A stretch of 64,000 nucleotides of DNA from an uncultured Lachnospiraceae bacterium. GTDB taxonomy: Bacteria; Bacillota; Clostridia; Lachnospirales; Lachnospiraceae. The stretch lies in the NCBI GenBank assembly GCA_934376955.1, contig CAKRPJ010000001.1, forward strand, positions 21,396 through 85,395. Direction: 5' to 3'. The translations under genes were made by a program, and so were the position numbers. Positions within the stretch are counted from its first letter, which is position 1. The number at the start of each line of letters is the position of its first letter. Positions 1 through 52,711 of this stretch are shown here, in pieces. A model generated the notes under the pieces. The model ran no database searches and was not told the origin of the DNA. It saw only the letters and a list, made by a program, of their open reading frames with translations.

Positions 1-1246
1 TATTTTTTATGATACCTGCGCCCTGCTCAATATGGGCGCACATGTTGTCGGTCGCCCATTTATTATCTCCGTCCAAACCCTGCTGGAGCTGGAATCCATC
101 AAAACCAGCCGCGCCAAAGATGAATCCGTTCGTTATCGTGCCCGCCAAATGACTCACTATCTCGATAGCACCCATGATTCCGACTTTTATCATGTCTCCA
201 ATGCTACCGATTATCTGAACGATGATGCCTGCCCGTTTCGCAGCACACTGCCCAACACCCCGGATTCCATCATCATTTATGCGGCCTGGAAAGCATACAG
301 CCAAAACCACGATATGATCTTCTGCACGGATGATCTCTGCTGCAAGCACCTGGCCTCTTCTCTTGCCCACCTGCCCGTCTGTTCTTCCAAGGATCTTCTC
401 CCTCGCCAAAGCTATACCGGCTTTCTGGAGGTCACTCCAACCAATGAGCAATACGCTGCCCTCTATGAACAGCCGGAACGAAATACCTTCGGCCTTATCT
501 CCAATCAATATCTTATCGCTCACAGCCCCGCAGACAGCTCCGTACAGGCGTTTAAGTGGGCAGACGGTAAATATGTCGCGGTGGATTATAAGCCCTTCAA
601 AACGCAGGCATTTGGCGCTGTCAGGGCCAAGGATAAAGATATCTACCAGATGCTCGCCTTTGATAGCCTTTTACATAACCAAATCACCATGTTGTGCGGT
701 CCTGCCGGTACTGGCAAAAGCTATCTGGCTCTGGCTCACATGCTCAAGCTGCTGGAAACCCATAAGATTGATAAAATCATCGTGTTCACCAACCCCTGCG
801 CCACATCCGGCGCTGCCCGTCTTGGTTTTTACCCCGGCACCCGCGATGAAAAGCTGCTTGACAGCCAAATCGGCAACATGCTCGGCGCGAAACTCGGCGA
901 TACCATGGAACTCCAGCGCTATATTGACGCCAACAAAATTCAGCTTCTCCCCTTCTCGGACCTGCGCGGCTTTGATACCACCGGCATGAACTGCGCCGTC
1001 TATATTACCGAGGCTCAGAACCTTGATATTGAAATGATGCGGCTTGCTCTTCAGCGTATCGGCGAAGATTCTATCTGTATCATTGATGGTGATTATGACG
1101 CCCAGGTCGATCTCGATATCTACTCTGGTGATAACAACGGTATGCGCCGCCTTTCCCAGGTCTTCCGCGGTCAGGATTTCTATGGCGAGGTCAAGCTCCA
1201 AAAAATCTACCGTTCCCGTATCGCCGCACTTGCACAGGAGATGTAA
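1..1246 (+). CDS. phoH: PhoH-like ATPase with N-terminal PIN domain (YlaK/PhoL-type); 5' end runs off the window (frame continues from nt 2, IFYDTCALL = PIN start)
   Basis: Walker A CGPAGTGKSYLALA and PhoH-like downstream motifs. N-terminal PIN-like segment starts before the first ATG. Confidence 0.85.
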   Translation, partial: IFYDTCALLNMGAHVVGRPFIISVQTLLELESIKTSRAKDESVRYRARQMTHYLDSTHDSDFYHVSNATDYLNDDACPFRSTLPNTPDSIIIYAAWKAYSQNHDMIFCTDDLCCKHLASSLAHLPVCSSKDLLPRQSYTGFLEVTPTNEQYAALYEQPERNTFGLISNQYLIAHSPADSSVQAFKWADGKYVAVDYKPFKTQAFGAVRAKDKDIYQMLAFDSLLHNQITMLCGPAGTGKSYLALAHMLKLLETHKIDKIIVFTNPCATSGAARLGFYPGTRDEKLLDSQIGNMLGAKLGDTMELQRYIDANKIQLLPFSDLRGFDTTGMNCAVYITEAQNLDIEMMRLALQRIGEDSICIIDGDYDAQVDLDIYSGDNNGMRRLSQVFRGQDFYGEVKLQKIYRSRIAALAQEM

Positions 1247-1513: not shown

Positions 1514-1810
1514 TTATCTTTTCCGTCTTACCACCACTCGCGGCTGTGCATGCCCAAACAAACTCCGCTTCGGCATTTCAAACGCTGTTTCAAACTCCTC
1601 GTCAAATTTGGCCCGCACCTTAAAATAGTCTGTGATTTTTGCCTGGATCTCCCGCAGCGCCTGCTGTTCCTTTTCAATCTGGATGTATTGTTCTCTTGTG
1701 CAGCTGTCCCCTTCCTGTATCCGCTGTTTCCATTCGTTCAGGGCATCCTCCTGGTAGCCGCACAGTTCCAGCATCTCATTGCAAAATCTTACGCTTGTCG
1801 GTCCTGCCAT
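1514..1810 (-). CDS. hypothetical protein (98 aa)
   Basis: RBS AAGGAGTGG upstream of the ATG. Charged coiled-coil-like sequence. Confidence 0.5.
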   Translation of the reverse strand: MAGPTSVRFCNEMLELCGYQEDALNEWKQRIQEGDSCTREQYIQIEKEQQALREIQAKITDYFKVRAKFDEEFETAFEMPKRSLFGHAQPRVVVRRKR

Positions 1811-1866
1811 CCATAACCACTCCTTGCCTTTTTCTTTTATCTTATCATATCAGAGGTGATTTCGCT

Positions 1867-2439
1867 ATGAATTTCTTTACTGCTGACCTTCATTTTTCTC
1901 ACCGTAACATTATCCGCTTCGATGACCGTCCGTTTCAAGACCTGCCCTCTATGCACGCGGAGCTTATCAAGCGCTGGAACAGCGTTGTCTCTCCTGGCGA
2001 TAACGTTTATGTCCTTGGCGATATGTTCTGGGACCCGTCCGAAGCTCCTATGATCCTTGAGCAGCTCAATGGCCATATCCATCTCATCAAGGGCAACCAC
2101 GATAAAATCTCGCCGGAAATGATGCGCTACTTTTCTTCCATCAAGGGCTATGATGAACTCGCAGCCGGCAAATATAAACTTATTCTCTGCCACTACCCTA
2201 TCATGTTCTACAACCACTCCTATTCGCCGGATTGCTACATGCTCTGCGGCCACGTCCATAACACCCGTGAGAATACTTATCTCGCTAAGTGGAAAGCAGA
2301 ACTGCGCGATAACGCGGTCGGTATTGCCAGTAACAAGGGCAACATCATCAACGTTGGCTGTATGCTGCATGATTATACCCCCAAAACCCTTAACCAGCTC
2401 ATTGCCTGGGATAAGGAAGGAGGCTGGAAAGTTGAGTAA
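1867..2439 (+). CDS. calcineurin-like metallophosphoesterase
   Basis: MNFFTADLHFSH...GDMFW...GNHD motif set typical of metallophosphatases. RBS GAGGTGA. True start is an internal ATG of the 266-aa ORF. Confidence 0.8.
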   Translation: MNFFTADLHFSHRNIIRFDDRPFQDLPSMHAELIKRWNSVVSPGDNVYVLGDMFWDPSEAPMILEQLNGHIHLIKGNHDKISPEMMRYFSSIKGYDELAAGKYKLILCHYPIMFYNHSYSPDCYMLCGHVHNTRENTYLAKWKAELRDNAVGIASNKGNIINVGCMLHDYTPKTLNQLIAWDKEGGWKVE

Positions 2440-2671
2440 AACAATTTTTACCTTTACGGAAGAGTTCGATGATGCCGGCCATCTCGTCAAGCGCACCATC
2501 ACAACCGAACAGGGCGAAACAGTTCTGCCGGTAACGCCAAACACCAAGCCGATTGATAACATGCCGTTTATCCCCACTCCAACCCCACGGAAAACGCCGC
2601 TTGATATAATCTGGAAAGCGCCGCCTGATGTAACCTGTAATTCTACCGGAGGTATCGCCCATGAATCCTAA
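2432..2671 (+). CDS. hypothetical protein (TTG start)
   Basis: RBS GGAAGGAGG 8 nt upstream of a TTG. Overlaps the phosphoesterase stop. Confidence 0.35.
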   Translation: MSKTIFTFTEEFDDAGHLVKRTITTEQGETVLPVTPNTKPIDNMPFIPTPTPRKTPLDIIWKAPPDVTCNSTGGIAHES

Positions 2672-2927
2672 AGAATTTGAACTGGCTGCCTGCACTGCCA
2701 TTTCCCGCTACTTCAATGATAACGCCGATGTAACTGGTGTCTATCTGTCACCGGATGATATCTACACCGTCTGGTCGTGCAAAACTCTTCAAAACAATAA
2801 AGGTCTTTTCACCACCCCTGTCAAAGACGGCCTGTATTACGAAGCCACCTATAACGGCGATAAGCAGGAACTCTACGTTGACTGTTATCAAAAGCTTAAA
2901 AACTTTGCAGTAAAAGTCAGCGAATAA
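2661..2927 (+). CDS. hypothetical protein (88 aa)
   Basis: RBS GGAGG before the ATG. Coding-like composition. Confidence 0.5.
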   Translation: MNPKEFELAACTAISRYFNDNADVTGVYLSPDDIYTVWSCKTLQNNKGLFTTPVKDGLYYEATYNGDKQELYVDCYQKLKNFAVKVSE

Positions 2928-2976
2928 AACAACATAGCCCCTATCCACTGTCACCCAGCGGACGGGGGCTATCTTT

Positions 2977-3432
2977 TTAGTTCAGGCCAAAATCAGCTAA
3001 CAACGGGTTCTTCAACAGCATCCCCACAATCACATACCGGTAAGATTTCACACTGCCGTCATAATAAAGGGTTCCTCGTATCCTCTGCTTTTTCACCAGT
3101 CCGGCCATGAACTCTGCCTGCTCTTTTGTAAAGTACAAAGAAACCTGCGGGTAGTTCTTGTCATCCAGCCGCGTTGTAATGTGCCGGTTGATTTCCAGTT
3201 CTGTCGGCAGCACATAGCTTTCTTCCAGGTGCGGCATCAAAGCCCGGTATTCTTTGGTATCTTTCATCACGCAGCGGTCGGCACCCACCGCCATCATCCT
3301 GCCAAGCTCTTCCTGCAACAGCCGGTTTGCCACGGTTCCAATGCGGGTATCTTCAACCTCGGCCTCGTCGTTCAGCACCTCGCGTACACGCATACTCAGC
3401 CGCAGGTTGATTTTCACTTCCTTTGCCATCAC
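2977..3432 (-). CDS. ribbon-helix-helix (CopG/ParG-like) DNA-binding protein with C-terminal extension, translationally coupled to parB
   Basis: N-terminus KINLRLSMRVREVLNDEA is RHH-like. Its ATG overlaps the parB stop (ATGA). Confidence 0.6.
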   Translation of the reverse strand: MMAKEVKINLRLSMRVREVLNDEAEVEDTRIGTVANRLLQEELGRMMAVGADRCVMKDTKEYRALMPHLEESYVLPTELEINRHITTRLDDKNYPQVSLYFTKEQAEFMAGLVKKQRIRGTLYYDGSVKSYRYVIVGMLLKNPLLADFGLN

Positions 3433-4619
3433 TTAACCGTCTCCAGCAGCTCTTTCAACTTCGCAGCTTTTTCAATCAGCTCTGTCAGCGTCTTAATGTC
3501 TTCTGTCCGCTGCTCCTGGCTCATCTTTTTCAGTCCTCTCTTATATGCCGGCGTTGCAATCTTCTTGCCAATCTTACCGGCCAGCGGCTGTAAAGTTTTC
3601 TGAACAAATGTTTTGGTTTCGGCTTTCTTCTCAGCAGTTTCAATCTCGCGTTCAAGTGCAGCCTGTTTTTCGGTTTCAGCAGGCTTTTCGGCCGCCATCT
3701 TTGTTTCAAGTGCGGCCACGCTTGTTTCAAAACTTTGTAATACCCGCTCCAGCCTCTCCTCGCGTTCTTCTGTCGAGTCTCCGTTCCAGGCATCGTCCAA
3801 TCCCTGCTGGGTATCATTGCGGATTCTGTCTCGGTCTTCTTCGTTCACACAGTTAATCGCAAACAATCTATTGTACAAACTCAAAAGTTCCTGTTGCTGT
3901 TTCTCTTCAAATTTGATCAATCTGTCGCATTCTGAGCGTTTCAGCTTTTTGTCATCCAGCAGTTTCAGCAGTCCTTTATTCAGCTCGTTTTCCAGGCGCA
4001 AATCTCTATCAATCATTTTCCCACTTGCGGCACTGATTTCTTTCAAGGCTTTCTTGGCCTCGGTCTGGTTCATGTTATATGGTTCTTCTTGTAAACACTC
4101 AATAAATTCAGCTGATGCCTTGCGCCGGATCATTTCATCCCCAAAACCACCGCGCACCTGCAGGTTAGCGCTGTACAAAATAACTTTCTTTTCATTGTGG
4201 GATAGGGGAGTGGTAACTACATTACAGTTCTTGGCCGCATTCCATGTCGCGTCCTGTTCCTGCAGCAGCATCAATGCTCGGTATCTCCGCTCGCCAGAAA
4301 GCAAAACATACACCGTCTTACCATCTTCCTGCTCAGGGAACACAACCAGGTTGTGCAGCAGGCCATTGCGCTTAATGTCTTCGGCTAATATTTCAATATC
4401 TTCTCCGTTGTCATTCTGACGGAAAATCTCGTTGTCCGGGTTCAGTCGGATGTCTGCCAGGCTGATATCCTTATTTTCAAACTCAATGGTCTTATTGCCA
4501 ACAATCTTTCCAACCAGGGCACGGCCGGCATCGTTATCGTTCACTTCTTTTGCTGCACTGCTGGTAGGAATGTTCAGTTTCTTTTCATTGCCTTTCTTCG
4601 GCTTTGATTTCAAACCCAT
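3429..4619 (-). CDS. parB: ParB-like partition protein (ParB/Srx N-terminal domain)
   Basis: GERRYRA motif in ...VLLSGERRYRALML. Likely start is the internal ATG at 4619, with RBS AAGGAGGA inside the parA 3' end; the ORF-table start is 4649. Confidence 0.85.
   Translation of the reverse strand: MGLKSKPKKGNEKKLNIPTSSAAKEVNDNDAGRALVGKIVGNKTIEFENKDISLADIRLNPDNEIFRQNDNGEDIEILAEDIKRNGLLHNLVVFPEQEDGKTVYVLLSGERRYRALMLLQEQDATWNAAKNCNVVTTPLSHNEKKVILYSANLQVRGGFGDEMIRRKASAEFIECLQEEPYNMNQTEAKKALKEISAASGKMIDRDLRLENELNKGLLKLLDDKKLKRSECDRLIKFEEKQQQELLSLYNRLFAINCVNEEDRDRIRNDTQQGLDDAWNGDSTEEREERLERVLQSFETSVAALETKMAAEKPAETEKQAALEREIETAEKKAETKTFVQKTLQPLAGKIGKKIATPAYKRGLKKMSQEQRTEDIKTLTELIEKAAKLKELLETVK
3876..3900. 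repeat. 25-bp repeat CAAACTCAAAAGTTCCTGTTGCTGT, copy 1, inside the parB coding sequence (putative parS/centromere site)
   Basis: Exact 25-mer shared with two copies upstream of parA. Contains an imperfect palindrome AACTcaaaAGTT. Confidence 0.6.
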
Positions 4620-4620
4620 C

Positions 4621-5475
4621 TCACTTTTCCTCCTTGTCCAGTTTTTCAAGCCGCTGTTTCAGCTCTTTATAAGCTGCCACATAGCTCTTGCCAATCGGTT
4701 GTGTTTTGGCAGAATAACATACCGGCACACATCTTCTCACCGATGTCTTCACGGCCAAAGCGCTGGGTATCTCAGTCTTGAACAGGGTAGGGCCAAGCAC
4801 TCTCTGACATTCTTCCCGCGTCTCTCTCGTGGCCGCACCCTTGTCCACCATGGTCAAAATCACGCCGATTCCTTTCAGGTTCGTCTTTGGGTTCTTGCGC
4901 AGCTCATTGCAAATGGAATAAGTTCTAAATGCTGAATCCTCAGAAAACGAATCGCACATCATCGGGATCAATACATAATCCGCTGCCACCAATGCGTTTG
5001 AAAGGATCATACTGTCACGGGTCGGCTGGGTATCTACAATGATATAATCATAGTTCTCCCGCACTTGGTCCAAAAAGTATAGCAAAAAGTCGGCTGTAGA
5101 TTCCAACCGTCTTGGGTCGCCCACATCATACTGCTGCGCATCAGCCAACAGGTCCGGCAGCCTCTTGTTGATCCGCGGTGTCTGGCTGCTTGCCGGGATC
5201 ATATCAACATTCTCATACTCTGTCCCCACAATATACTCTTTCGTGGAGGTGTACTTGAACCCGTCAAACATATCGTACAGCGCATTGCGGGAATAAGCAT
5301 TGCTTGTAATCGTATTGCCGCCGCTCAATGCAAAGGTCAAGTTGCCCTGCGGGTCGGTATCTACGCACAAAACCTTTTTTCCTTCATCCCCCATTAGGTA
5401 AGCAAGGTTAGAAGCCGTAACCGTCTTACCAGAGCCGCCTTTTTCAATCGCAATCGTAATAATTTTTGCTGCCAT
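4621..5475 (-). CDS. parA: ParA/Soj-family partition ATPase
   Basis: Deviant Walker A IAIEKGGSGKT. Size and downstream motifs fit ParA. Confidence 0.9.
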   Translation of the reverse strand: MAAKIITIAIEKGGSGKTVTASNLAYLMGDEGKKVLCVDTDPQGNLTFALSGGNTITSNAYSRNALYDMFDGFKYTSTKEYIVGTEYENVDMIPASSQTPRINKRLPDLLADAQQYDVGDPRRLESTADFLLYFLDQVRENYDYIIVDTQPTRDSMILSNALVAADYVLIPMMCDSFSEDSAFRTYSICNELRKNPKTNLKGIGVILTMVDKGAATRETREECQRVLGPTLFKTEIPSALAVKTSVRRCVPVCYSAKTQPIGKSYVAAYKELKQRLEKLDKEEK

Positions 5476-5492
5476 AGCTAACCCTCACTTGT

Positions 5493-5517
5493 CAAACTCA
5501 AAAGTTCCTGTTGCTGT
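5493..5517. repeat. 25-bp parS-like repeat, copy 2 (between rep and parA)
   Basis: Exact copy of the 25-mer. Confidence 0.6.
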
Positions 5518-5570
5518 TTAATTTGATTATATCACACTTCGTAGTAATGTCAACGGGGTAGAGCATCTGT

Positions 5571-5595
5571 CAAACTCAAAAGTTCCTGTTGCTGT
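5571..5595. repeat. 25-bp parS-like repeat, copy 3 (between rep and parA)
   Basis: Exact copy of the 25-mer, 78 bp from copy 2. Confidence 0.6.
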
Positions 5596-5642
5596 AACAA
5601 AGTTAAAAATAGGGGAGCCACCTCGTCAGCAGCTCCCCCTGG

Positions 5643-7196
5643 TTATTCTTCAAATGTTGTTTCATCCAGCTGAAACATCGGCTCTTTGCCGTCCTGTCCC
5701 ATCCGCCGTTTCCCGCCTTCAATGATCGTGGCGGAATTTTCTACAATGTCGCTGTACACCACCGTGCGGTAATACTGCGCAGATTTCTTTTCCACATCCT
5801 GCCTCAGCATCACGCTAAACTTCTCCAGTTCACCCAACGCCCAGCTTTTCAGCCCGTGGTTGTTCTGGATGATTCCGTTCAGCGCTTCCAGTGTTTCTTC
5901 AGCCTGGTCTTGTTTGTTCTGGTTGGTCAATATCTTGGCTGCATAAGTAAACACATTTGCCAAAACATTCCGCTCTTCTACGGTCAGCTCCTTCTTGTAG
6001 CCCGCATAGCCAGCCCGGTCTTCTATCTCGCTCCGCGCCTTGCGGAACGTCATTCCCATCACAGCCGGGGGCAGGGGAGAGACCTCTCCGGTTTCAGCCG
6101 CCAACACAGCTTGTTTCTTCGCCTTTTGTTTGCGTGCCACCTCCTGATCGCTGCGCTGGTTCGCGCTCAAAAACGCCCGTACCTTCTCCATCTCTTTGCG
6201 TGATTTGTACTTGATAAAGATATACAGATGAGTGTATTTCCGCACGCCCTTGGTTCGCACCGGCTCATAGTCAAACCACAGGTCTGTCATCTCATTGATC
6301 TCATTTTTTACCAGCTTCAAAACATTGCGTTCAAAGTCTGAAAAATTCGGGTACTTTTCTGTCAATGGTTTTTCGCGGTCATACTTGTTATCCACATCGG
6401 CTTTTTTGCGGTTCATGCCGCGCTCTTCTTTGGTCGGTACAGACAGCAGGTTTTTGAAATCATCAATGCCAAACTTTTTGTACTTGTATCCACGCAGCTG
6501 GTTCCGCTTTGCGGGGAACATCCCCAGCACCTCGTCCGTCACCGGCTCAAACACCAGTCCATTGGCGTATTCGTAGTCCCGGTTTCCATTATCATAAGAT
6601 AAAATAATTTCATACACCCGCATGGAATAGGTGCTCTGCATCATCAGCAGGTATTCAATGCTGTAAGATGTATAATTGCTTGTCAGCTGTGCAATATCTT
6701 TCCAAATGTCCTCATTGAACCGCATACTGATGGTTTTGCCCTCAGTATCAATGATCGAACCTTTGCGTACCCAGCTCATGCTCTTGTACTTGGTTGGGGC
6801 AATCGGTACCCAAAATGTCCGGTTCTCCAAATTTTCAATCGTGTGCTGCAAATATGCCACATAGGCCGGCTTTTCCGCATTCACGCCTGTCAGCTTTGAA
6901 AAGTCGCTGAACGTAATCGTGTAATACTTCGAAGCATCCGTGTCATTTTTCTGGTCGATCTTGGAAAGCAGCATGAACAAAATTTTCTGCTCGTTGCGCG
7001 GCAGGGAATACTTGGTCTTCTGGATCAGGTCATTGCTCTTGGTGATGTAAGAGCCAACGGCAAAAGGGGAGCCGGTCTTCTTTTCCTGCTCCTTTTTCGC
7101 CTTAACCTCTTCGTCCGTCATCACCTCTCCGGTAATCACCGTTCCTGTGCCTGCACGGTTTACTTTTTGGTCTTTCATTATTCTGTTCGCCCGCAT
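5643..7196 (-). CDS. rep: Rep_3-family (RepB-type, iteron-binding) replication initiator
   Basis: ...SYSIEYLLMMQSTYSMRVYEIIL... and ...FSDFERNVLKLVKNEINEMTDLWFDYEPVRTKGVRKYTHLYIFI match the Rep_3 core signature. The iteron field lies immediately upstream. Confidence 0.85.
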   Translation of the reverse strand: MRANRIMKDQKVNRAGTGTVITGEVMTDEEVKAKKEQEKKTGSPFAVGSYITKSNDLIQKTKYSLPRNEQKILFMLLSKIDQKNDTDASKYYTITFSDFSKLTGVNAEKPAYVAYLQHTIENLENRTFWVPIAPTKYKSMSWVRKGSIIDTEGKTISMRFNEDIWKDIAQLTSNYTSYSIEYLLMMQSTYSMRVYEIILSYDNGNRDYEYANGLVFEPVTDEVLGMFPAKRNQLRGYKYKKFGIDDFKNLLSVPTKEERGMNRKKADVDNKYDREKPLTEKYPNFSDFERNVLKLVKNEINEMTDLWFDYEPVRTKGVRKYTHLYIFIKYKSRKEMEKVRAFLSANQRSDQEVARKQKAKKQAVLAAETGEVSPLPPAVMGMTFRKARSEIEDRAGYAGYKKELTVEERNVLANVFTYAAKILTNQNKQDQAEETLEALNGIIQNNHGLKSWALGELEKFSVMLRQDVEKKSAQYYRTVVYSDIVENSATIIEGGKRRMGQDGKEPMFQLDETTFEE

Positions 7197-7361
7197 AGCC
7201 TGTCCGCCATGTCAAGCTCAACCTCCAAATCACAGTGTATGTATCGCATCGCACAGGTGGGTATACCTAACGCATTATATCTTTATCTTACCCTATTTTT
7301 ATCCGCTCGTCAAGCCTAATTTTTTTGCGCTTTTCTTCAAAACAAAACTCGTAGTAAAATT

Positions 7362-7420
7362 TTTTGCGCTTATTATTATTTATTATTTATATTTTATATT
7401 TATATTATATAAGGTATATT
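7362..7420. promoter_or_regulatory. AT-rich tract next to the tandem iterons (putative DNA-unwinding element)
   Basis: TTATTATTATTTATTATTTATATTTTATATTTATATTATATAAGG, essentially all A/T. Confidence 0.4.
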
Positions 7421-7525
7421 GCGAGTTTCTTTTACACGAGCTGCGAGGTTCTTTTATTCCTCATACGAGTTTCTTTTATACTGGCTACGAGTTTCTTTTA
7501 TTCCTGCTACGAGTTTCTTTTACGC
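7421..7525. repeat. five tandem 21-22 bp direct repeats (C)TACGAGTTTCTTTTA(T/C), the reverse complement of the dispersed iteron core
   Basis: Read directly from the sequence. Period is about 21 bp, two helical turns. Confidence 0.7.
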
Positions 7526-8215
7526 AAAATCCTGCTTTTCGCTGTCAAACAACCTCGTAATTGCTGTCAAAAAATCTCGCAGTTCGCATCAAATAATCTC
7601 GTAATTCACGTTAAATTTTTTGTTTCCTGCGCTTTTTGTCAAACAAACTCGTAGTTTTAAGCCAAACGGATAGGGTAGGGGAGTGGTCCCGCCCCTGATT
7701 TTTTTTACGCCTTTTCAAATCAAAAAACTCGTAGTTCATTCCGCTGCATCAACCATCCATATCTGGCCGTCTGAACCATATTTTTTCAATCTTTTGGTCA
7801 AACAAACTCGTAATTCTGGCTATGGGTGGTCATAAATCAACTTCAAGTCCTGTCATGCGCCGCCCGTCCATACCGTCCTGGCTTTATTACAATCGGTATT
7901 TTTTGCGCTTTTTCACCGTAAAAGAAACTCGTAGTTCAGCTCTAAATGCTCTGCCCATCAATCGGCAGCAGGGGAGAGGGTCTGATTTTTTTTGCAGTTT
8001 TCGGCGTAAAACAAACTCGTAATAGCTACAGCAACCAGCGCCGGCCGAATTCAATCTTGTCGCATGTATCATCTATCAATTCATAAACCGTTCATATTGG
8101 CCGTTTTCCCGGTTTCACACCCTATAAGCCTATATACCAAAAAGTATACACCTCACATGCCGGCAATTCAACAAAAATCAATCCCGTCAACCAAATAATA
8201 ACCGCGTACACATTC

Positions 8216-8560
8216 TTGGGTATAACTTTGTGCAACCTGCCTTTGGAAATAACCAGAAAAGTCGTAAACGTAGATGGAACCGATTTGTCAAAAATTCGTT
8301 CGCGCATAAGCGGAACAGTAAATAAAAACTCTAGAACCGGGATAAACGGTGTTGCGCTTACCAAAAAAGGCACCTACAAAGCATATATTAACTTTAAGCA
8401 TAAACGCATTCACCTTGGCTTTTTCACCAATCTAAAAGACGCAGCCGCTGCCAGAAAAGAAGCCGAAGAAATTCTTTACAATAAATTTTTAGACGATAAC
8501 GCCGGTTGGGAACAGCGCCTGGCAGACGCAATGGCCGAATACAAAAAGAACAAGAAATAA
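8216..8560 (+). CDS. stand-alone AP2-domain DNA-binding protein (start uncertain, TTG in table)
   Basis: GINGVALTKKGTYKAYINFKHKRIHLGFFTNLKDAAAARKEAE resembles the AP2/integrase-type DNA-binding domain common in phage HNH nucleases. Confidence 0.55.
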   Translation: MGITLCNLPLEITRKVVNVDGTDLSKIRSRISGTVNKNSRTGINGVALTKKGTYKAYINFKHKRIHLGFFTNLKDAAAARKEAEEILYNKFLDDNAGWEQRLADAMAEYKKNKK

Positions 8561-8569
8561 CCGTCAATT

Positions 8570-8598
8570 TCGCTAAAGCTTAATTTAGCGAAATATAG
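8570..8598 (+). terminator. hairpin TTCGCTAAA-GCTTAA-TTTAGCGAA after the AP2 gene
   Basis: 9-bp perfect inverted repeat. Weak U-tract. Confidence 0.35.
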
Positions 8599-8703
8599 GG
8601 AACCCGATAAAATCTTCAAAACCTCCTTGACATATGACATAAAATGTCGTATCCTATAACCAAAGGAACGACATTAAACGTCATACAGATAGGAGGCTTT
8701 CTT

Positions 8704-9210
8704 ATGGCTTTAACTACAGAACAAGTTTTTGCAATGGGTATTCTCTATAATCAACTAACCACAGCAGTTTATGGTGACGATGGTCCAAAAGCAAACAGCT
8801 TCCAAAACGCCACCATGTATCCGTTTTTGGAAATTACCAAGCTGATTCTTCGTGCCCGTTCTGAACGTCGTATCTCTCCAGAGCTGGATCGCCTGATTGC
8901 CCAAACATATTCAACCCTTACCGAAGAAGACGTTCAGAGCGGGTTTAGCAGCATTCTTCCCGTTGAACTGCAAGGTGCCTTTGCTCTTGGTTATTATCAT
9001 GGCCAGGTCGAAAAGTATTCGGATATCAAGCCCATCGGTCTCAAAGCCATGCGTGCCCGCGCTAATATGACTGTCCAACAGGCAGCAGATAAACTCGGTA
9101 TATCCGCCCGCCAATACCAACGTATTGAATCTGGCGAAAGCAAACCTACTGTTCAGGCAGCACAAACTCTTGCCTCGCTGTTTCAATGCTCTGTCAATGA
9201 TTTATTTTAA
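8704..9210 (+). CDS. XRE-family helix-turn-helix protein (HTH at the C-terminus, novel N-terminal domain)
   Basis: C-terminus TVQQAADKLGISARQYQRIESGES is an HTH_XRE. RBS AGGAGG 9 nt before the ATG at 8704. Confidence 0.7.
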   Translation: MALTTEQVFAMGILYNQLTTAVYGDDGPKANSFQNATMYPFLEITKLILRARSERRISPELDRLIAQTYSTLTEEDVQSGFSSILPVELQGAFALGYYHGQVEKYSDIKPIGLKAMRARANMTVQQAADKLGISARQYQRIESGESKPTVQAAQTLASLFQCSVNDLF

Positions 9211-46452: not shown

Positions 46453-47340
46453 CTATGCGGCTCTTAGCCTTTCCCAGCAATTTGGGTATTTAATTATTTG
46501 ACACCTGCATCCTACACAACTATTCCCCTTGTGTAAACGGGCATACAATTTACCACTGGTGCCTTTATTTTTAATAAGTGACGTTACAAGCCCTGCACTT
46601 ACACCACTTATTGCAACTGGAATTAGTCCAATATTATCAACGAGTTTTACAACTGCATCGGCAGCATTAGTAATCCATGTTGCCAGTTCGATAAACTTTT
46701 TAACTATATCGCTATCCAGCACATCCTTAGAAAGCTTCTCAAATGCTGCTGTGAACTGCGAAATCTTACCATTGATACTATTAAGGTAAGTCTCATTTTC
46801 TTTTGTGGCGCTGCCGGCAGATTCAGCAGCAGTCTTGGCGGCATCCTGTGCGTCCTTCCAGTTGTCCAGCATACCGGAAACAACGTTAGCGCGGTTCTTG
46901 CCAGCAACCTGTTCCAACAGGGATGCTTTGTCGACGTCGTTCATTTCTTTCCAGACGTTGGCAATGCCTTCCATGATTTCATAGGTGGACTTAAAATCCC
47001 CGCTCTTGGTTAAGATATCAAATCCGCCCTTACCGTCAACATTGGTCAATGCCTTGATCTGGTCACGCAGTTTAGAGGTGCTTACTGCTACATCATCAGT
47101 GCTTTCGCCCATCTGTTCAAGATCGGTCTTTGCGCCACGGATGCGCAGTGACAATACTTTCAGCGCGTTACCTACCGACTCCGGGTCCTGCGCAACATCA
47201 TTGGCAGCCACAATCATACCAATACTCTGATCCAACGTGTTTCCTGCGGTATGCAAGGCGGATGCCGAGCGCTGTAGCGCACTGCCAACTCCAGCCGAGG
47301 AGATGGCATAATTATTCAAGCTGTTACTTTCACGGATCAA
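46453..47340 (-). CDS. tape measure protein, downstream segment (continues the TP901-type core region; last ~35 aa of the ORF look non-native)
   Basis: NNYAISSAGVGSALQRSASALHTAGNTLDQSIGMIVAANDVAQDPESVGNALKVLSLRIRG continues the core begun in 47561..52711, but in another frame. Confidence 0.7.
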   Translation of the reverse strand: MIRESNSLNNYAISSAGVGSALQRSASALHTAGNTLDQSIGMIVAANDVAQDPESVGNALKVLSLRIRGAKTDLEQMGESTDDVAVSTSKLRDQIKALTNVDGKGGFDILTKSGDFKSTYEIMEGIANVWKEMNDVDKASLLEQVAGKNRANVVSGMLDNWKDAQDAAKTAAESAGSATKENETYLNSINGKISQFTAAFEKLSKDVLDSDIVKKFIELATWITNAADAVVKLVDNIGLIPVAISGVSAGLVTSLIKNKGTSGKLYARLHKGNSCVGCRCQIIKYPNCWERLRAA

Positions 47341-47755
47341 CCGTTACTGACCGTAAACAATACGGCGGGTAGTCATTTCTGGCTACCTCTCATGTTTCAA
47401 GTATTAGGTTATAGCATGAGTTCGGACTGTATATTACCGATGTCTTATCGGAATTTACTTCAACATACCTGTTGCCAAGTATATCCTGCAGTCTCTAGGG
47501 ATTTATAGAATTTAACGATTTTATCTTCAACTTGTTCCGCAGTTAAAGTGTATGGCAATCTTAACAACGGAATTTTATTATCTTTTCGTTTGTTAGAGAT
47601 TGTTCCTTTAATAAACTGACCTTTGTTATTTCTTGTACACATAAAAAAATAACCTCCCTATTGCCATATAGGAAGTTATCGTTAAATTCCATATCTTTCC
47701 TCGGTCTTGGGTGCCTCCACCCTTTAACCGATATAGTAAATTTGGGGCAATGTTG
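47341..47755 (-). other. intervening sequence of ~410 nt splitting the tape measure gene (group I intron-like, boundaries approximate)
   Basis: The conserved core is interrupted between ...FNEVGK(Q) and (S)LNNYAISS. The insert contains stop codons and a free-standing small ORF with its own RBS. Confidence 0.5.
47460..47642 (-). CDS. 60-aa ORF inside the intervening sequence; degenerate HNH homing-endonuclease-like N-terminal fragment
   Basis: NNKGQFIKGTISNKRK resembles the GQF.KGH.PWNKG motif of phage HNH endonucleases. RBS GGGAGG. Confidence 0.4.
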   Translation of the reverse strand: MCTRNNKGQFIKGTISNKRKDNKIPLLRLPYTLTAEQVEDKIVKFYKSLETAGYTWQQVC

Positions 47756-50700
47756 TTTACCCACCTCATTAAATTTATCAACAATGCTGGTTACATCTTT
47801 CGCTTCAACGCCAAACGCTTTCATTGTGGAAATGATAGATTCACTAGCGTCATTGACACTAGAAATTCCATCCCCCACATGTTGGTACAGAACGGCCGCG
47901 TCAGCCAATTCTTTGGAATCTTTCAAATTGTAACCTAACCGTGCAAAATCAGCACTGGCCGTTACAATATCGCTGATAGAAGCGCCCAGATTCTTTGCTC
48001 GCGTACCGGCATCATCCAAAAACGCATCGTATGTATTATCGGTTTCGTTTGTAACCTTTTTCAGCTCGGTCATGGCAGAATCAATATTCACCACGTTCTG
48101 GTAAATCTGTCGCAACCCTTGCTGAACCATGTTAATTACCTGGCTGGCAAACTGACTCTTGATATTTGTCTCAAACAGCTTTTTGAACTTCATTGCCAGT
48201 GTGTCAGTTTCAAGCCCAGCATCCTGTACTGCCTTTTTCAGTTCAGCAAATTCCTTGGATGCTTTGCTTGCATATTCCTGGCCGTTTTGCTGTGTGATTT
48301 TCCCGGATTCTAGCAATTTCTGGTAGCGTTCAATATATTCGAGATACCGTGCATATATCGCAGGATCAGTTGTAATTTTAGAGTTATTAGACAAATACCT
48401 CTGTGCTGTATACAAAGAATTAGAAACACTCTTAATATAAGTGTTCACATCACGCTGAGATTTAAGGTTGCCATTAAACTTATCAGCTTCCGCCTTTGTT
48501 TCGCCAATCTTTGTTTTAACAGCGTTCAACGCATCAGAGACACTTTCAATCGGTGTTTTGGCATTTTCAAACTGCTTGGCCATTGCAGCAATAAAAGTTG
48601 GAACGTCAGCCGCAGATTTAACCTTTTCGGCTTCTTCAACCATCTTTTTAAGAGCACTTTCAGTTTGCTGGTAAATACCATTATCCTTAAATCCCTTATT
48701 GCCAGCGCTCCGCTGTAAAGCCGTTAGCATCGTCTGGTGGTTTGCCAAAAAGTCCTTAATCTGCTCAAACTGGCGCTCATTACTTCTAACGCTATTATCA
48801 GCCATGGTGTCATTGGCTGTATTTACTGCTGTTGTAAAATTTTTAGCAGCAGATGCGCAATTATTCATAGCGATTTTAAGCTTGTCAAAGTTTTCGGAAC
48901 TCCAGTCTTTTTCATACTCTTTTCTGGCTTTTTCTAAAGCTGTTTGAGTCTCTTTGAATTCTTCTCGCAAACGAGTAATTTTTGCGCTTTCTGTACCATT
49001 TACGTCTAGCTTCGAAGCCTTAGAGATGCTGGCGGCAGGATCAATTTTAGAAAGCTCTTGTAACTGAGCTGTCTGGGTTTTAATGTCTGCAATATCTTTT
49101 TCTGCTGCCCTTATTGCAGTTTGAAGAACGTCTGCATTCCTATCCCCGCCTTCTTTATCAAGGCGAGTAATAATCTCTAAAACGTATGAAAGATCGGCAG
49201 AAAGTTTTTTTACTGAATTATCATAATTTTCAGTCGTTTTATTGTCGAATTGAAATTTAGCAGCCTCATCGTATGCCTGAGTAAACTCGGCCCATTTGGC
49301 CACATTAGTCAGCAAGGCATTTGTACTTTCCGATTCTTCATTGGCTACTTGCGCCGCCGCTTTGGCCGCTTCCTGGGTTTCTTTATTAACCTGCTTTACA
49401 CCTTCCGCCATCTCGGTGGTCCGGCTAACAATATCTGCCCATGTTGTTGCGGCTTTTTCGCTGCCATTATAAAAGGCAGTAATGTCATCATTCAGTTCAG
49501 CAAATTGCTTGGTATAACTATCTTTTACAGCGCCTTCTGGCATCTGCTTAATCATTGCACCAAGATTACCGGTCTTCATTGCCAGCGATGTTACATGGCT
49601 ATTATCAGGGCTGGTTTGCAGCATCGCGTCCTTGCGGATCTTAGTGGAGATTTTCTTAATCTGCTCATCAACAGAGTTGTTAATCAGCTCCGCAAACTGA
49701 TCCATGTTTACCTCGTCGGTCATGGTTTTCAGTTTAGCAAGATCCGTCATGCTGTCCGTGATGCTCTTGGCTGCATTCGTTAGACTATTAAATACGGCAG
49801 TAATTTCCGCAAAGCCATTCACAATGTCAGTCTTGGCCTTTTTAGCATCTGTCGTACTCTTCTGTGCCTTGGCAAGTTTTGCATCAAGGCCGCTGGTATC
49901 TTTCAGCGTAGTCAGTGCCTGACTCAATGCTTCATCCAGTGTTGCCTTAAATCGCTGGGTGGCTTCTGCTACTGCTGCATCAACTTTCGGCGTCACCGTC
50001 TTGCCGTTCTCATCTTTCGGCAGTTTAACGCTGTTGATGGCACTCAGCTCACCAATGGACTTCTTATAAAAATCAACGATGTTGTTGATAAAGTTCCCAA
50101 GCTTGCGATAAGTTGTCGCATTCTTGCTGCCATCAATCTCTGCCACTTTGTCCAGGTTTTCCTGTAACCCTGCTGCAATGTTAGCATAACTGGTAAACAG
50201 CCGCTTCAATCGGTTCCCGGCGTTCACAAGGGTCTTTACACTAGCATCAATTGTTCCGCTGGCCTGTGCAGCTTCGCTCAGTGCGGTGGTAACCCGTCCA
50301 ACCTTTTCGCCGGCATTATTCAGGGTCGCACCAACAGTTTCCATCTGGGCAGAAAACTCCTGTGCAGCACTCTGCTGTTGTTTTGCCGCATCGGCCGTTG
50401 TAGTCGCTGTACGCTCGCCAGTGGTTTTATAAGCCAGAATAATAGCGTTTACTTCATCAGATGCCGCAATAATCTGCGCTGCTTTTTCAGCAAACCCATT
50501 TGTCGCAGCGCCAATCTTGGCAAACTTGGTAAACACCGTGTGGATTTGAGTGCTCGCCTCATTCGCTTTTGCAACACTGGCAGCCACATCATCCATGCTG
50601 TCAGTTTCAGTGACGGCTTTCTTCCCGCGCTTGGCTTTGGTTACGGTTCCGTTTATAAGGCCAGCGTTAGTCTTTATGTCAGCTAGGGATTCACTATACT

Positions 50701-52711
50701 GCTTAAAAGTATTGTTCAGGGCAGTTGCAGCCTCAATCATGGGGCGGGTCGCTTCTTTTGCTCCGTCTGCACTGGTAGCCGCTGTTTTCAATTCGGTCGT
50801 AATGGTGTTAATTGAATTACTGGCATTGGTGATAGCATTTTTAACCGTGTCCGCCGCTTTTTCTGCGTTCAATACCAACTGCTGCAGCTTTACAGCTTCA
50901 TCAACCTCGGTGGTTTCGGTTTTCTGTGTTTTCTTGCCACGCTTCCCCTTAGTCGGTTTATCCTCCTTGGTCAGGCTGGTTAAAAAGGCAGTCGAGATTG
51001 CTAAGGTTTTATTGATGCTGTCAATGGCTGCATTAAATTCAGCAGCTTTTGTTTTGGTCGTTTCCAGCTTCGGGTTGCTCTCTACCACAGAATTAACAAA
51101 CGCAGAAACTTTATCCAAAACATCTTTTACCTTGCTGGGGTTAATCGCAGAAAGTGTTTCAAGCAAAGTTTTCGCATCATCAGCCTTGTTTTTACCATCT
51201 GTAATACCGGTAGCCTCAGATTTTAATTTTGAAATTTCTTCTGCAATCTGCTCTTTTTGCTTAACCAGGGTCTGAAGAGCATCAATGCTTTTTTTAGTTT
51301 CTGTGTAAATGGCCTGCTCAGCCTCTAATGTACCATTTTTTGCAGCAGTGACATCCTTTTGCTTTTGAGCCATCGTATCAAGCTGAGAAATAATAGTTTC
51401 AGTAGTGCTTTTTATACGGGCTGTTATTTCAGTATCATCCAAATCCGGTTCAGACATGGTTTTTAACTCTGTCTGCGCATCACTTATTCCGGCAACTTTA
51501 TTTTGAAGTTCTTTTTTTCGTTGTTCAATTCTTTCTTCAACAGCCTGGATTGTATTGTCTATACCAGAAACCATTTGATTTTTTACACTATCAGGTAAAA
51601 TACCAATGGTCGAAGCAATCTCAACCCAATACTCTTGATAATCTTTTGCAGCAGTTTCAACCTCTTCTTCTGTTGATGTAGAACTTAATACTTTTTGACG
51701 GGCTTCATTTAACTTTTTAAACAAGCTTTTAAGAGTCGCAGTATAATTCAAGGCGGCAGAATTTAATTCTTCCGATGCCTTCATATCTATAGCCTTAATT
51801 ACTGTTTTGAACTGTTTCGCTACCTTGTTAGAGTCTTCTTCAGTCTCCGCCAACTGATCCTTTACATAATCAGTAAAACTTTCATACCCTACATCAGGAT
51901 CATCCCACTTTACGATATCTTCAAAGACATTGAAAACTTGTTTGATTTTATCAGTTTCGTTTCCAACGACATTTTTAATCTCTACTGCGCCTTTCTCAAA
52001 GCTATCACTCATCAAAGAAAAATAAGTGTCTATATCCTTACTGATATCATTAGAATTTTCCTGTAATCCCTGTTTTAATGTAGGATTTTTAAGAGTGCTT
52101 AAAAGTTTTTGCTGAAAAGAAGAAATTTCAGAAGAAACATCGTTTCCATTTTTTGCTTTTTCGTCGTCATTAGAATTTGTAGTTTCTGCATTTATTTCGG
52201 CAACAAGTGTTTTGATGTCAGAAATATTTTCTTTTATTTTTTGGTACTGCTTTATTTTTGTATTAAGAGCCGAAATCTCAGTATCTTTATTTATACTGTT
52301 TTTAAGTTCTCGTTCTTGTGTTGCAGTAAGCTTGATTCCCTCATTTAGCTGCTTTTGTGCGACAATCTGCTCTTGAGTGGCACTTGCGAGTTCTTTTCGT
52401 TTCTGTACACTACCAGTAAGTAGATTTATATTAGAAGTAAGCGCCGCCTGTTCCCGCTTTTGTGCCTGTTCAATAACTGCGGCTGCCTGCTGGGCGCTTT
52501 TAGCGTAGTCGTCAATAGCCTTCATGGTATTGGCCATTGCCTTTTCCATCGCCCCGGATATAGTCTGACTGATGCTCTTTAGCTGTGTCTTTAGGTTTTT
52601 ATCGCCAATCTGTACATTAAACTTTTTGTCTTTTGCAATCTCATTCAGTTTCCCCTGCACACCACCGCCGTCAGGTTCCACTTTTACCTTAATACTTAAA
52701 TCTTCCGCCAT
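47561..52711 (-). CDS. tape measure protein, upstream segment (1716-aa ORF; native sequence ends near 47756, the remainder is read-through into the insert)
   Basis: Very long coiled-coil. C-terminal ...TELKKVTNETDNTYDAFLDDAGTRAKNLGASISDIVTASADFARLGYNLKDSKELADAAVLYQHVGDGISSVNDASESIISTMKAFGVEAKDVTSIVDKFNEVG is a TP901-type TMP core. RBS AAGGGGG. Confidence 0.75.
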   Translation of the reverse strand: MAEDLSIKVKVEPDGGGVQGKLNEIAKDKKFNVQIGDKNLKTQLKSISQTISGAMEKAMANTMKAIDDYAKSAQQAAAVIEQAQKREQAALTSNINLLTGSVQKRKELASATQEQIVAQKQLNEGIKLTATQERELKNSINKDTEISALNTKIKQYQKIKENISDIKTLVAEINAETTNSNDDEKAKNGNDVSSEISSFQQKLLSTLKNPTLKQGLQENSNDISKDIDTYFSLMSDSFEKGAVEIKNVVGNETDKIKQVFNVFEDIVKWDDPDVGYESFTDYVKDQLAETEEDSNKVAKQFKTVIKAIDMKASEELNSAALNYTATLKSLFKKLNEARQKVLSSTSTEEEVETAAKDYQEYWVEIASTIGILPDSVKNQMVSGIDNTIQAVEERIEQRKKELQNKVAGISDAQTELKTMSEPDLDDTEITARIKSTTETIISQLDTMAQKQKDVTAAKNGTLEAEQAIYTETKKSIDALQTLVKQKEQIAEEISKLKSEATGITDGKNKADDAKTLLETLSAINPSKVKDVLDKVSAFVNSVVESNPKLETTKTKAAEFNAAIDSINKTLAISTAFLTSLTKEDKPTKGKRGKKTQKTETTEVDEAVKLQQLVLNAEKAADTVKNAITNASNSINTITTELKTAATSADGAKEATRPMIEAATALNNTFKQYSESLADIKTNAGLINGTVTKAKRGKKAVTETDSMDDVAASVAKANEASTQIHTVFTKFAKIGAATNGFAEKAAQIIAASDEVNAIILAYKTTGERTATTTADAAKQQQSAAQEFSAQMETVGATLNNAGEKVGRVTTALSEAAQASGTIDASVKTLVNAGNRLKRLFTSYANIAAGLQENLDKVAEIDGSKNATTYRKLGNFINNIVDFYKKSIGELSAINSVKLPKDENGKTVTPKVDAAVAEATQRFKATLDEALSQALTTLKDTSGLDAKLAKAQKSTTDAKKAKTDIVNGFAEITAVFNSLTNAAKSITDSMTDLAKLKTMTDEVNMDQFAELINNSVDEQIKKISTKIRKDAMLQTSPDNSHVTSLAMKTGNLGAMIKQMPEGAVKDSYTKQFAELNDDITAFYNGSEKAATTWADIVSRTTEMAEGVKQVNKETQEAAKAAAQVANEESESTNALLTNVAKWAEFTQAYDEAAKFQFDNKTTENYDNSVKKLSADLSYVLEIITRLDKEGGDRNADVLQTAIRAAEKDIADIKTQTAQLQELSKIDPAASISKASKLDVNGTESAKITRLREEFKETQTALEKARKEYEKDWSSENFDKLKIAMNNCASAAKNFTTAVNTANDTMADNSVRSNERQFEQIKDFLANHQTMLTALQRSAGNKGFKDNGIYQQTESALKKMVEEAEKVKSAADVPTFIAAMAKQFENAKTPIESVSDALNAVKTKIGETKAEADKFNGNLKSQRDVNTYIKSVSNSLYTAQRYLSNNSKITTDPAIYARYLEYIERYQKLLESGKITQQNGQEYASKASKEFAELKKAVQDAGLETDTLAMKFKKLFETNIKSQFASQVINMVQQGLRQIYQNVVNIDSAMTELKKVTNETDNTYDAFLDDAGTRAKNLGASISDIVTASADFARLGYNLKDSKELADAAVLYQHVGDGISSVNDASESIISTMKAFGVEAKDVTSIVDKFNEVGKQHCPKFTISVKGWRHPRPRKDMEFNDNFLYGNREVIFLCVQEITKVSLLKEQSLTNEKIIKFRC

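Follow-up and report, generated by a model that had tools for sequence, protein, structure and literature searches.

Three repeats at the partition locus of a gut phage-plasmid change together with one segment of ParB and are probably its binding sites

Here we describe a partition locus on a 64,000-nucleotide stretch of DNA from an uncultured Lachnospiraceae bacterium (assembly GCA_934376955.1, contig CAKRPJ010000001.1, positions 21,396 to 85,395 of the forward strand; the whole stretch is referred to here as the window). The locus lies on the minus strand and consists of a rep3 gene followed by a parA-parB-orf151 operon. It contains a 25-bp repeat that an earlier note, made from the sequence alone, had reported in three exact copies and read as a centromere-like (parS) site. 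Our exact-match scan found the same copies of CAAACTCAAAAGTTCCTGTTGCTGT on the plus strand at 3876-3900, 5493-5517, and 5571-5595 (n = 3), and 100 dinucleotide-preserving shuffles gave 0 matches. Read on the minus strand (i.e., in the sense of the genes) the repeat is ACAGCAACAGGAACTTTTGAGTTTG, and all three copies have the sense of the operon. The two intergenic copies (Sites 1 and 2) agree over 28 bp, TGTCAAAC...GCTGT, and the third (Site 3) lies inside parB; together the three sites span 1.7 kb. The TGT that was said to precede each copy is present at both intergenic copies, while the internal copy is preceded by GTA (tattGTA directly before CAAACTC). The earlier note had also suggested looking for more copies. 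We found no fourth copy with three or fewer mismatches in the window, and searches of the window with the 12-mer core, a degenerate core, the variable 16-mer (three or fewer mismatches), and the constant 9-mer returned no credible further copies or half-sites beyond chance. Dispersed extra sites of the N15 or KorB kind were rejected since the core, variable-half, and constant-half searches all gave chance level only.

The assignment of rep, parA, and parB in the earlier note agrees with both their Pfam domains and their open reading frame (ORF) coordinates. The two copies described as lying in the promoter region between rep and parA do flank a consensus parA promoter, one on either side. This promoter (-35 hexamer at 5553-5548, -10 hexamer at 5531-5526) is the sole perfect sigma-70-type match within 2800-8700. 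An intrinsic terminator of rep sits between rep and the par promoter, Site 2 ends approximately 6 nt ahead of the parA ribosome-binding site, and the parB ATG lies 1 nt past the parA stop codon, downstream of a AAGGAGGA ribosome-binding site. Elsewhere, the window codes for tape-measure, tail, and virion structural proteins. Since the element carries phage structural genes and its viral relatives are IMG/VR contigs of 90-150 kb, it is a phage-plasmid.

ParA contains the deviant Walker A motif KGGSGKT (residues 12-18) and matches Pfam AAA_31 (2.7e-36), with CbiA and ParA also above their cut-offs; it scores below the cut-off of NCBIfam ParA_partition. Its ATPase-domain match begins at residue 4, and ParA has no N-terminal helix-turn-helix (HTH) extension. 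ParB begins with a lysine-rich N-terminus (MGLKSKPKKG), after which come the ParB_N domain (PF02195; 29.4 bits, cut-off 26.3), an HTH region, a coiled coil, and helices at the C-terminus. Its FRQ, GERRYRA, and NLQxR boxes are intact, and G109, E110, R111, R112, and A115 are invariant in 33 homologues, while its score is below the cut-off of the NCBIfam partition-protein family TIGR00180. By sequence, ParB matches Spo0J (1vz0) in the PDB. An AlphaFold2 model of ParB (predicted local distance difference test score, pLDDT, 81.8) was matched by Foldseek to Noc (7nfu), ParB(-CDP) (6sdk), and KorB (8qa9/8qa8; E 2.3e-5), and this likeness of fold covers the N-terminal domain plus the HTH. The model places helices at residues 185-195 and 200-212 (KMIDRDLRLENEL). 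We infer that these are the first HTH helix and the recognition helix, respectively, because they match the pattern of canonical ParB proteins, ENLQR...LTQEELA...KSRSAVANALRLL.

We compared the window with 33 viral loci that encode ParB relatives, and with 3 more from exact-protein look-ups, and distinguished five lineages. In lineage A, to which the window belongs (ParB 97-99% identical to that of the window), the 25-mer occurs at Sites 1, 2, and 3. Lineage A'' (L070; ParB 82%) has ...TTTTGACTTTG at Sites 1 and 2 and the same change at Site 3, i.e., G21C in all three copies, with S247T in ParB. In lineage A' (L014-L018; ParB 95%) GGA is replaced by AAG/GAG, giving ACAGCAACAAAGAC... at Sites 1 and 2 and ACAGCAACAGAGAC..., with E244R, at Site 3. 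The sites of lineage B (L020-L040 and L072; ParB approximately 79%) carry AAGAATTGGTTCTTT, with ACAGCAACAAAGAACTGATTCTTTTG and ATAGCAACAAAGAATTGGTTCTTTTA at Sites 1 and 2 and ACAGCAACAGAGAATTGGTTCTTTG at Site 3, and those of lineage C (L071; ParB 77%) carry RAAYCGGGAGTT, with ATAGCAACACAGAACCGGGAGTTTTG and ACAGCAACATAAAACCGGGAGTTATA at Sites 1 and 2 and ACAGCAACAGAGAATCGGGAGTTTG at Site 3. Over the variable positions 10-25, the internal copy is nearest to the intergenic copies of its own lineage in every lineage, while positions 1-9 are 97% identical across all of them. Lineages B and C both encode QQQRIGSL at Site 3, and they do so with different synonymous codons (ATT GGT TCT versus ATC GGG AGT), each version being nearest to the intergenic sites of its own lineage. 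This synonymous recoding indicates that the internal copy is constrained as DNA, beyond its coding function. Within lineage A the sites are invariant and some flanking intergenic bases vary, although the small amount of total variation makes this a weak test; the informative signal is the co-variation between lineages rather than conservation within one.

The site is asymmetric in architecture. A constant half found family-wide, AYAGCAACA (the ACAGCAACA half), is followed by a lineage-specific half. The AACT..AGTT half-palindrome that had been noted in the repeat is present in lineage A with arms of 4 bp; it is not kept in the sister lineages, and lineage B alone has a good dyad (6+4+6, AAAGAAnnnnTTCTTT). 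Since the dyad differs between lineages A and B, dyad symmetry was rejected as the common denominator of the sites. Sites 1 and 2 start 78 bp apart in lineage A, 67 bp apart in lineage B (L022 5037-5131), and 69 bp apart in lineage C. The spacings in A and B differ by approximately one helical turn, so the relative helical face of the two sites may be preserved.

Co-variation with the sites points to ParB. Identity between lineages A and B is 97-99% for Rep, 97-99.6% for ParA, and 93-99% for orf151, against 77-80% for ParB. In a sliding comparison of the same two lineages, a replicon module of 6.7 kb (approximately 1520-8220) is approximately 96% identical at the DNA level outside two patches (Table 1). 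One patch begins within Site 1, at its variable half, takes in Site 2, and ends at the start of parA. The other lies in parB; its start coincides with the predicted recognition helix (H200-212), and it includes that helix, the helices that follow, and Site 3. Lineages A' (K201R and R205K) and A'' (M202V, I203V, and D204E) likewise have substitutions in the predicted recognition helix. In canonical ParB and Noc, it is the recognition helix and its neighbouring helix that contain the residues which set specificity (PMC7383237). The putative DNA-reading ribbon-helix-helix (RHH) unit of orf151, its residues 1-50, is identical in A, A', B, and C, and the sites differ at approximately half of the variable positions among lineages that share this N-terminus. 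A role of the RHH-like protein as the specificity partner of the repeats is contradicted by this identity.

Recombination at the locus may reach beyond these two patches. The replicon module is 96-98% identical inside and 30-45%, unalignable, on both sides (L014 and L022, locus 2400-9100); it behaves, by sequence comparison, as a cassette carried on different backbones or as a module bounded by hypervariable regions. One ParB, P0033, is a mosaic of lineage A (residues ~1-158) and, in the remainder, of a lineage with approximately 45% identity (P0098 type), which indicates that recombination between the N-terminal (ParA/CTP) and DNA-binding parts is wider than the swap between A and B.

Table 1. 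Coordinates of the genes, sites, and patches of the partition locus in the window
Feature	Positions	Strand	Description
rep	5643..7196	minus	Rep3_N/Rep3_C domains
parA	4621..5475	minus	284 amino acids; Pfam AAA_31, CbiA, MipZ, ParA
parB	3429..4619	minus	396 amino acids; Pfam ParB_N
orf151	2977..3432	minus	151 amino acids; overlaps parB stop codon; third gene of the operon
parA-parB-orf151 promoter	5526..5553	minus	TTGACA, 16-nt spacer, TGnTATAAT; 12/12 consensus with extended TG
rep intrinsic terminator	5611..5639	minus	12-bp stem with 7 GC pairs, then T run
Site 1	5568..5595	minus	Exact 28-bp copy, minus-strand reading ACAGCAACAGGAACTTTTGAGTTTGACA; 3' end 14 nt upstream of parA -35
Site 2	5490..5517	minus	Exact 28-bp copy; start 9 nt downstream of parA -10, ~+2 of expected transcript
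Site 3	3876..3900	minus	Exact 25-bp copy inside parB, from last base of codon K240 to L248 (QQQELLSL)
Promoter/operator patch	5470..5588	minus	45-67% identity, lineage A versus B; ~96% on both sides
ParB specificity patch (putative)	3673..4029	minus	Codons ~197-316; 45-62% identity, lineage A versus B

We consider it likely that the three repeats are the cognate parS/operator sites of the ParB encoded in the same operon, because the copies change in concert with one segment of ParB and with nothing else. The idea of parS/operator sites put forward in the earlier note is thus supported by comparative sequence evidence, namely that the three copies co-vary with one another and with ParB residues ~197-316 alone across five lineages. 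We propose that ParB, which has a ParB/Noc/KorB fold and intact CTP-binding boxes, would nucleate at each site through its HTH region and, given its FRQ, GERRYRA, and NLQxR boxes, would probably act as a CTP-dependent clamp. Conserved residues would read the constant half, AYAGCAACA, and the lineage-specific half would fall to the variable recognition helix and those after it. ParB bound at Site 1, upstream of the -35 hexamer, and at Site 2, at the transcription start, would repress parA-parB-orf151 and so set the levels of ParA and ParB, while loading at all three sites, across 1.7 kb, would let ParB build the partition complex. The 284-amino-acid Walker ParA might then act on this complex through the lysine-rich N-terminus of ParB and segregate the plasmid-form prophage. 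If related phage-plasmids compete in the same hosts, distinct specificities are expected, and paired swaps of the sites and the ParB patch would supply them, such that near-identical replicons avoid partition incompatibility. The position of Site 3 inside the segment that is thought to read it would keep site and reader genetically linked. By analogy, such swaps would parallel those of P1/P7. They would also parallel the diversity of actinobacteriophage parABS systems (PMC7157519).

Several points weigh against the assignment of the repeats to ParB. Binding, partition, and repression are all deduced from the comparison of sequences. The site is non-palindromic, unlike the 16-bp palindromes of canonical dimeric HTH ParB proteins, and a conserved protein other than ParB, orf151 for example, could be the reader of the constant half. 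The predicted recognition helix was identified from a pattern match and an AlphaFold2 model. In addition, the ParB patch includes coiled-coil residues that probably do not touch DNA, so part of its divergence may reflect the recombination tract. Finally, the internal copy was absent from the distant relatives that we inspected for it (L044, L046, and L049), which indicates that it is not essential to the family.

The constant half raises the alternative of a bipartite site bound by two proteins, in which orf151, acting as repressor or as loader or lock of ParB, occupies the constant half and ParB reads only the lineage-specific half; in its extreme form, orf151 alone would be the operator and centromere binder, as omega or ParG are in type Ib systems. 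We regard this as unlikely. The third gene of the operon, orf151, is conserved and translationally coupled; 12 of 14 full-length relatives have it downstream of parB, at 28-49% identity, and the loci of the other two stop shortly after parB. The constant half is common to lineages in which orf151 is unchanged. The protein has no match to a Pfam, PHROG, or NCBIfam family, nor a sequence match in the PDB. Its AlphaFold2 model (pLDDT 88.8) has a strand at residues 4-9, helices at 13-26 and 30-48, and a second strand-helix unit at 96-115, and is predicted to be RHH-like; by our reasoning a tandem RHH would suit an asymmetric site. Foldseek matched orf151 weakly to DndE and to F relaxosome chains, which we take to be TraY. 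Both DndE and TraY carry RHH-type folds, although these matches are non-significant (E of 0.15 or higher). The size of ParA is also that of type Ib ParA proteins such as delta. However, an orf151 whose residues 1-50 are identical in A, A', B, and C cannot account for the lineage-specific half, and its putative reading strand has diverged in distant relatives that keep AGCAACA (KINLRL versus RVLIRF, KPIRLC, and RILVRF). Furthermore, orf151 lacks the flexible N-terminal tail that ParG and omega use to stimulate ParA, and the tandem arrays of short repeats that are typical of RHH centromeres are absent. A more elaborate combination, to which we assign a rather low probability, is that the ParB CTPase acts on a long asymmetric bipartite site whose AYAGCAACA half is read by orf151, as a possible tandem-RHH, KorA-like loader, lock, or co-repressor, while an exchangeable and self-linked ParB cassette reads the variable half and recombines to escape incompatibility.

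Three further explanations dispense with ParB as the reader. If the repeats were functionless, i.e., homogenised by gene conversion or the chance product of glutamine-rich coding, their core could arise by coding alone, since CAG CAA CAG (QQQ) yields it and all members of the ParB family keep the middle glutamine, Q242. Such an origin is very improbable: it would have to produce five independent concerted changes at three loci up to 1.7 kb apart, including synonymous recoding toward each lineage's own intergenic copies, and the copies are perfectly conserved in lineage A while flanking intergenic bases vary. Moreover, the operator position is kept across the family, and a 25-bp tract is very short for homologous gene conversion. 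The location of the repeats directly downstream of rep, and the 7 nt (CAAACTC) that they have in common with the iteron core AAACAAACTCGTAG at 7320-8033, might suggest auxiliary iteron-like Rep-binding sites for rep control or handcuffing. That alignment covers 7 nt only and needs an indel, and between lineages A and B Rep is 97-99% and the iteron region approximately 95-98% identical, yet the repeats have fully diverged and CAAACTC is lost in B. Because neither Rep nor the iterons co-vary with the repeats, we have rejected this explanation as having almost no chance of being correct. We hold it to be just as extremely unlikely that the repeats act as an RNA element in the parAB mRNA (in the 5' untranslated region and inside parB) bound by a regulator or small RNA. 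Sites 2 and 3 would indeed be transcribed in the same sense on one mRNA, but Site 1 falls between the rep terminator and the promoter, and the co-variation is with the DNA-binding segment of ParB. Several copies in a relative with 50% ParB identity (L042) are inverted, which argues for recognition at the level of DNA rather than RNA.

The wider family of this ParB was also surveyed. At least 739 ParB homologues were found in metagenomes, and genomic matches came from Oscillospiraceae and Clostridia, including Gemmiger formicilis ATCC 27749. The relatives keep rep3, parA, parB, and an orf of 140-200 amino acids in this order. Those with 43-50% ParB identity contain, upstream of parA, 3-5 copies of AYAGCAACA with a lineage-specific 3' part (e.g., AGCAACAGGARC, AGCAACAGAAAY, ACAGCAACAAGAATTGA, and ACAGCAACAYGTACGCAAGTC), and in them the last copy is always 10-12 nt past the -10 hexamer. 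Across relatives with 44-100% ParB identity a site takes up the position of Site 2, with AGCAACA beginning 10-12 nt past TATAAT. L042 also has an internal copy at the same parB codon position. Its 12-bp core, AGCAACAGGARC, occurs eight times (at 286, 3934, 4715, 4843, 4908, 5032, 5108, and 6725), including one copy inside rep and one inside parB, and the 3' flanks are unconserved; the length and number of sites therefore vary across the family. In two relatives with 41% ParB identity (L053 and L054), the layout of three repeats around the promoter is kept with an unrelated motif, TTTGCCACGGAGTTATAAG, and their ParB carries S at the otherwise near-invariant position R208. From the sequences, this is a hint, given by a single evolutionary event, that R208S may be linked with the switch of motif. 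The strain Gemmiger formicilis ATCC 27749 has two relatives, L046 (NZ_FUYF01000018.1) and L053 (NZ_FUYF01000014.1), with the repeat motifs ACAGCAACAAGAATTGA and TTTGCCACGGAGTTATAAG, respectively. Their presence in one strain is consistent with co-residence and compatible partition specificities.

The exact 25-mer was found elsewhere in 7 viral contigs (8 stretches) and 19 metagenome stretches, the labelled ones being mostly human-gut assemblies. Of the 61 copies in these, one is at a contig end and the other 60 are divided equally, 20 each, among the three homologous positions. The repeat is thus not a generic one, such as the repetitive extragenic palindromic (REP) element against which the earlier note had cautioned. 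A megablast search of 2900-7700 against phage and plasmid collections gave no match. A tblastn search with ParB found nothing among the PLSDB plasmids and one unannotated 7-kb fragment among phages. We likewise found nothing specific in the literature on this ParB family or on phage-plasmids of Gemmiger or Oscillospiraceae.

Upstream of rep, an iteron field at 7320-8033 is composed of units of approximately 22 bp with the core AAACTCGTAG and is probably the plasmid origin. Within the field, a tandem run of four 22-bp units (7422-7531) precedes three units in the opposite orientation (7545-7615), and at least six dispersed copies with the core AAACTCGTAG occur at spacings of 80-300 bp and form several long-range inverted pairs. 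A PIN-PhoH fusion protein is encoded next to the replicon (32-1246, plus strand). In the structural region, at 37639-41151 and 46453-52711 on the minus strand, are two very large tape-measure-like ORFs of 1170 and 1716 amino acids, together with a 295-amino-acid ORF that is tape-measure-like or lysin-like.

The earlier note had proposed a type I architecture with parS inside parB. The elements of this architecture are present, i.e., a Walker ParA (KGGSGKT), a ParB_N-type ParB with GERRYRA, and putative sites at the promoter and within parB, but the locus is neither a textbook type Ia nor a textbook type Ib system. In type Ia systems (P1 ParAB and F SopAB), ParA has approximately 400 amino acids and an N-terminal HTH that autoregulates the operon, and the centromere is downstream of parB. 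Here, ParA has 284 amino acids and no HTH, and the sites are found upstream of parA and inside parB, with none downstream of parB. In type Ib systems (TP228 ParFGH and pSM19035 delta/omega), a small RHH dimer binds arrays of short repeats upstream of parA. Here, orf151 shows no co-variation with the sites, which are three isolated units of 25-28 bp rather than tandem arrays, and the operon encodes a ParB with ParB_N and HTH regions. The repeat is unrelated to the 16-bp palindrome of canonical parS, TGTTNCACGTGAAACA, and it also differs from a Rep3 iteron in that the repeats diverge where Rep and the iterons are 95-99% identical. In KorB-type systems, a ParB-CTPase at promoter sites represses transcription with the help of a small partner that locks the clamp. 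Here, ParB matches the KorB fold and the putative sites bracket the promoter; orf151 is not KorA-like. Overall, the system would work like a ParABS locus with operator-centromeres, and its logic is nearest to that of RK2 KorB/IncC and chromosomal Spo0J.

With Soj/Spo0J of Firmicutes, the locus shares a short Walker ParA without HTH, a ParB in which the CTP-binding GERRxRA domain is followed by the HTH, and one cognate site, putative here, inside the parB coding sequence. Lin and Grossman reportedly located parS inside spo0J in 1998, which is the clearest precedent for a parS within parB. The differences are that the site here is asymmetric, of 25-28 bp, rather than the 16-bp palindrome, that two sites bracket the operon promoter, that ParB has 396 amino acids with a long coiled coil, and that a third conserved gene follows parB. 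The OB operator of RK2 is a 13-bp palindrome present in approximately 12 copies across the plasmid; the locus described here has three asymmetric sites, all within the par locus. It resembles RK2 IncC-KorB in its short ParA, in a protein of the ParB-CTPase fold with promoter sites that would be both centromere binder and repressor, and in a small partner in the operon, here predicted to bind DNA. In RK2, KorB acts at its OB operators with KorA as its small partner (PMC11790492). That partner has an HTH and comes from an upstream gene, while orf151, predicted to be RHH-like, is encoded downstream.

Matched changes of site and ParB have parallels in phage-plasmids. As in P1 and P7, partition belongs to a phage-plasmid, and the site is an asymmetric composite of which one part is shared and another sets, or here would set, specificity. 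In P1/P7 parS, which contains box A and box B, species specificity comes from a discriminator contact, and matched determinants in site and ParB are said to give distinct specificities (Radnedge, Davis and Austin in 1996 and 1998; Schumacher and Funnell in 2005). The ParA of P1 is, however, an operon repressor of approximately 400 amino acids of type Ia, and P1 parS lies downstream of parB and has an IHF site, while the sites here lie upstream of and inside parB; the likeness is one of description and not of ParB homology. RedRock and related actinobacteriophages also carry parABS on extrachromosomal prophages. They have eight 8-bp repeats in an array, in contrast to three single sites of 25-28 bp with one of them intragenic, and differ in host phylum and ParB family. 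Specificity switching between ParB and Noc likewise involves the recognition helix and the adjacent helix, and the natural patch described here starts at the predicted equivalent helix; in that work the sites, parS and the Noc-binding site (NBS), are palindromic and four point substitutions were used (PMC7383237), whereas here a segment of approximately 120 residues is exchanged together with an asymmetric half-site.

These data indicate that the finding of the earlier note is correct and that the system is somewhat richer than was proposed, with no new principle. The ParB family is uncharacterised, with no relative in PLSDB and one unannotated phage fragment only, while such elements are abundant in human-gut Oscillospiraceae and the cultured genome with relatives is that of Gemmiger formicilis. 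Given defined specificities, the replicon module (approximately 1520-8220) could seed compatible shuttle vectors for those gut Clostridia that are hard to manipulate. If ParB does bind the repeats as proposed, the recoding of the intragenic copy would be a clear case of a coding sequence limited by the DNA-binding specificity of its own product. Furthermore, the locus would offer a natural series of five matched ParB/site specificities on replicons that are otherwise 96-98% identical, and thus a clean system for the evolution of ParB-parS recognition, for CTP-dependent nucleation of ParB on an asymmetric site, and for the way in which partition incompatibility shapes the diversification of phage-plasmids.

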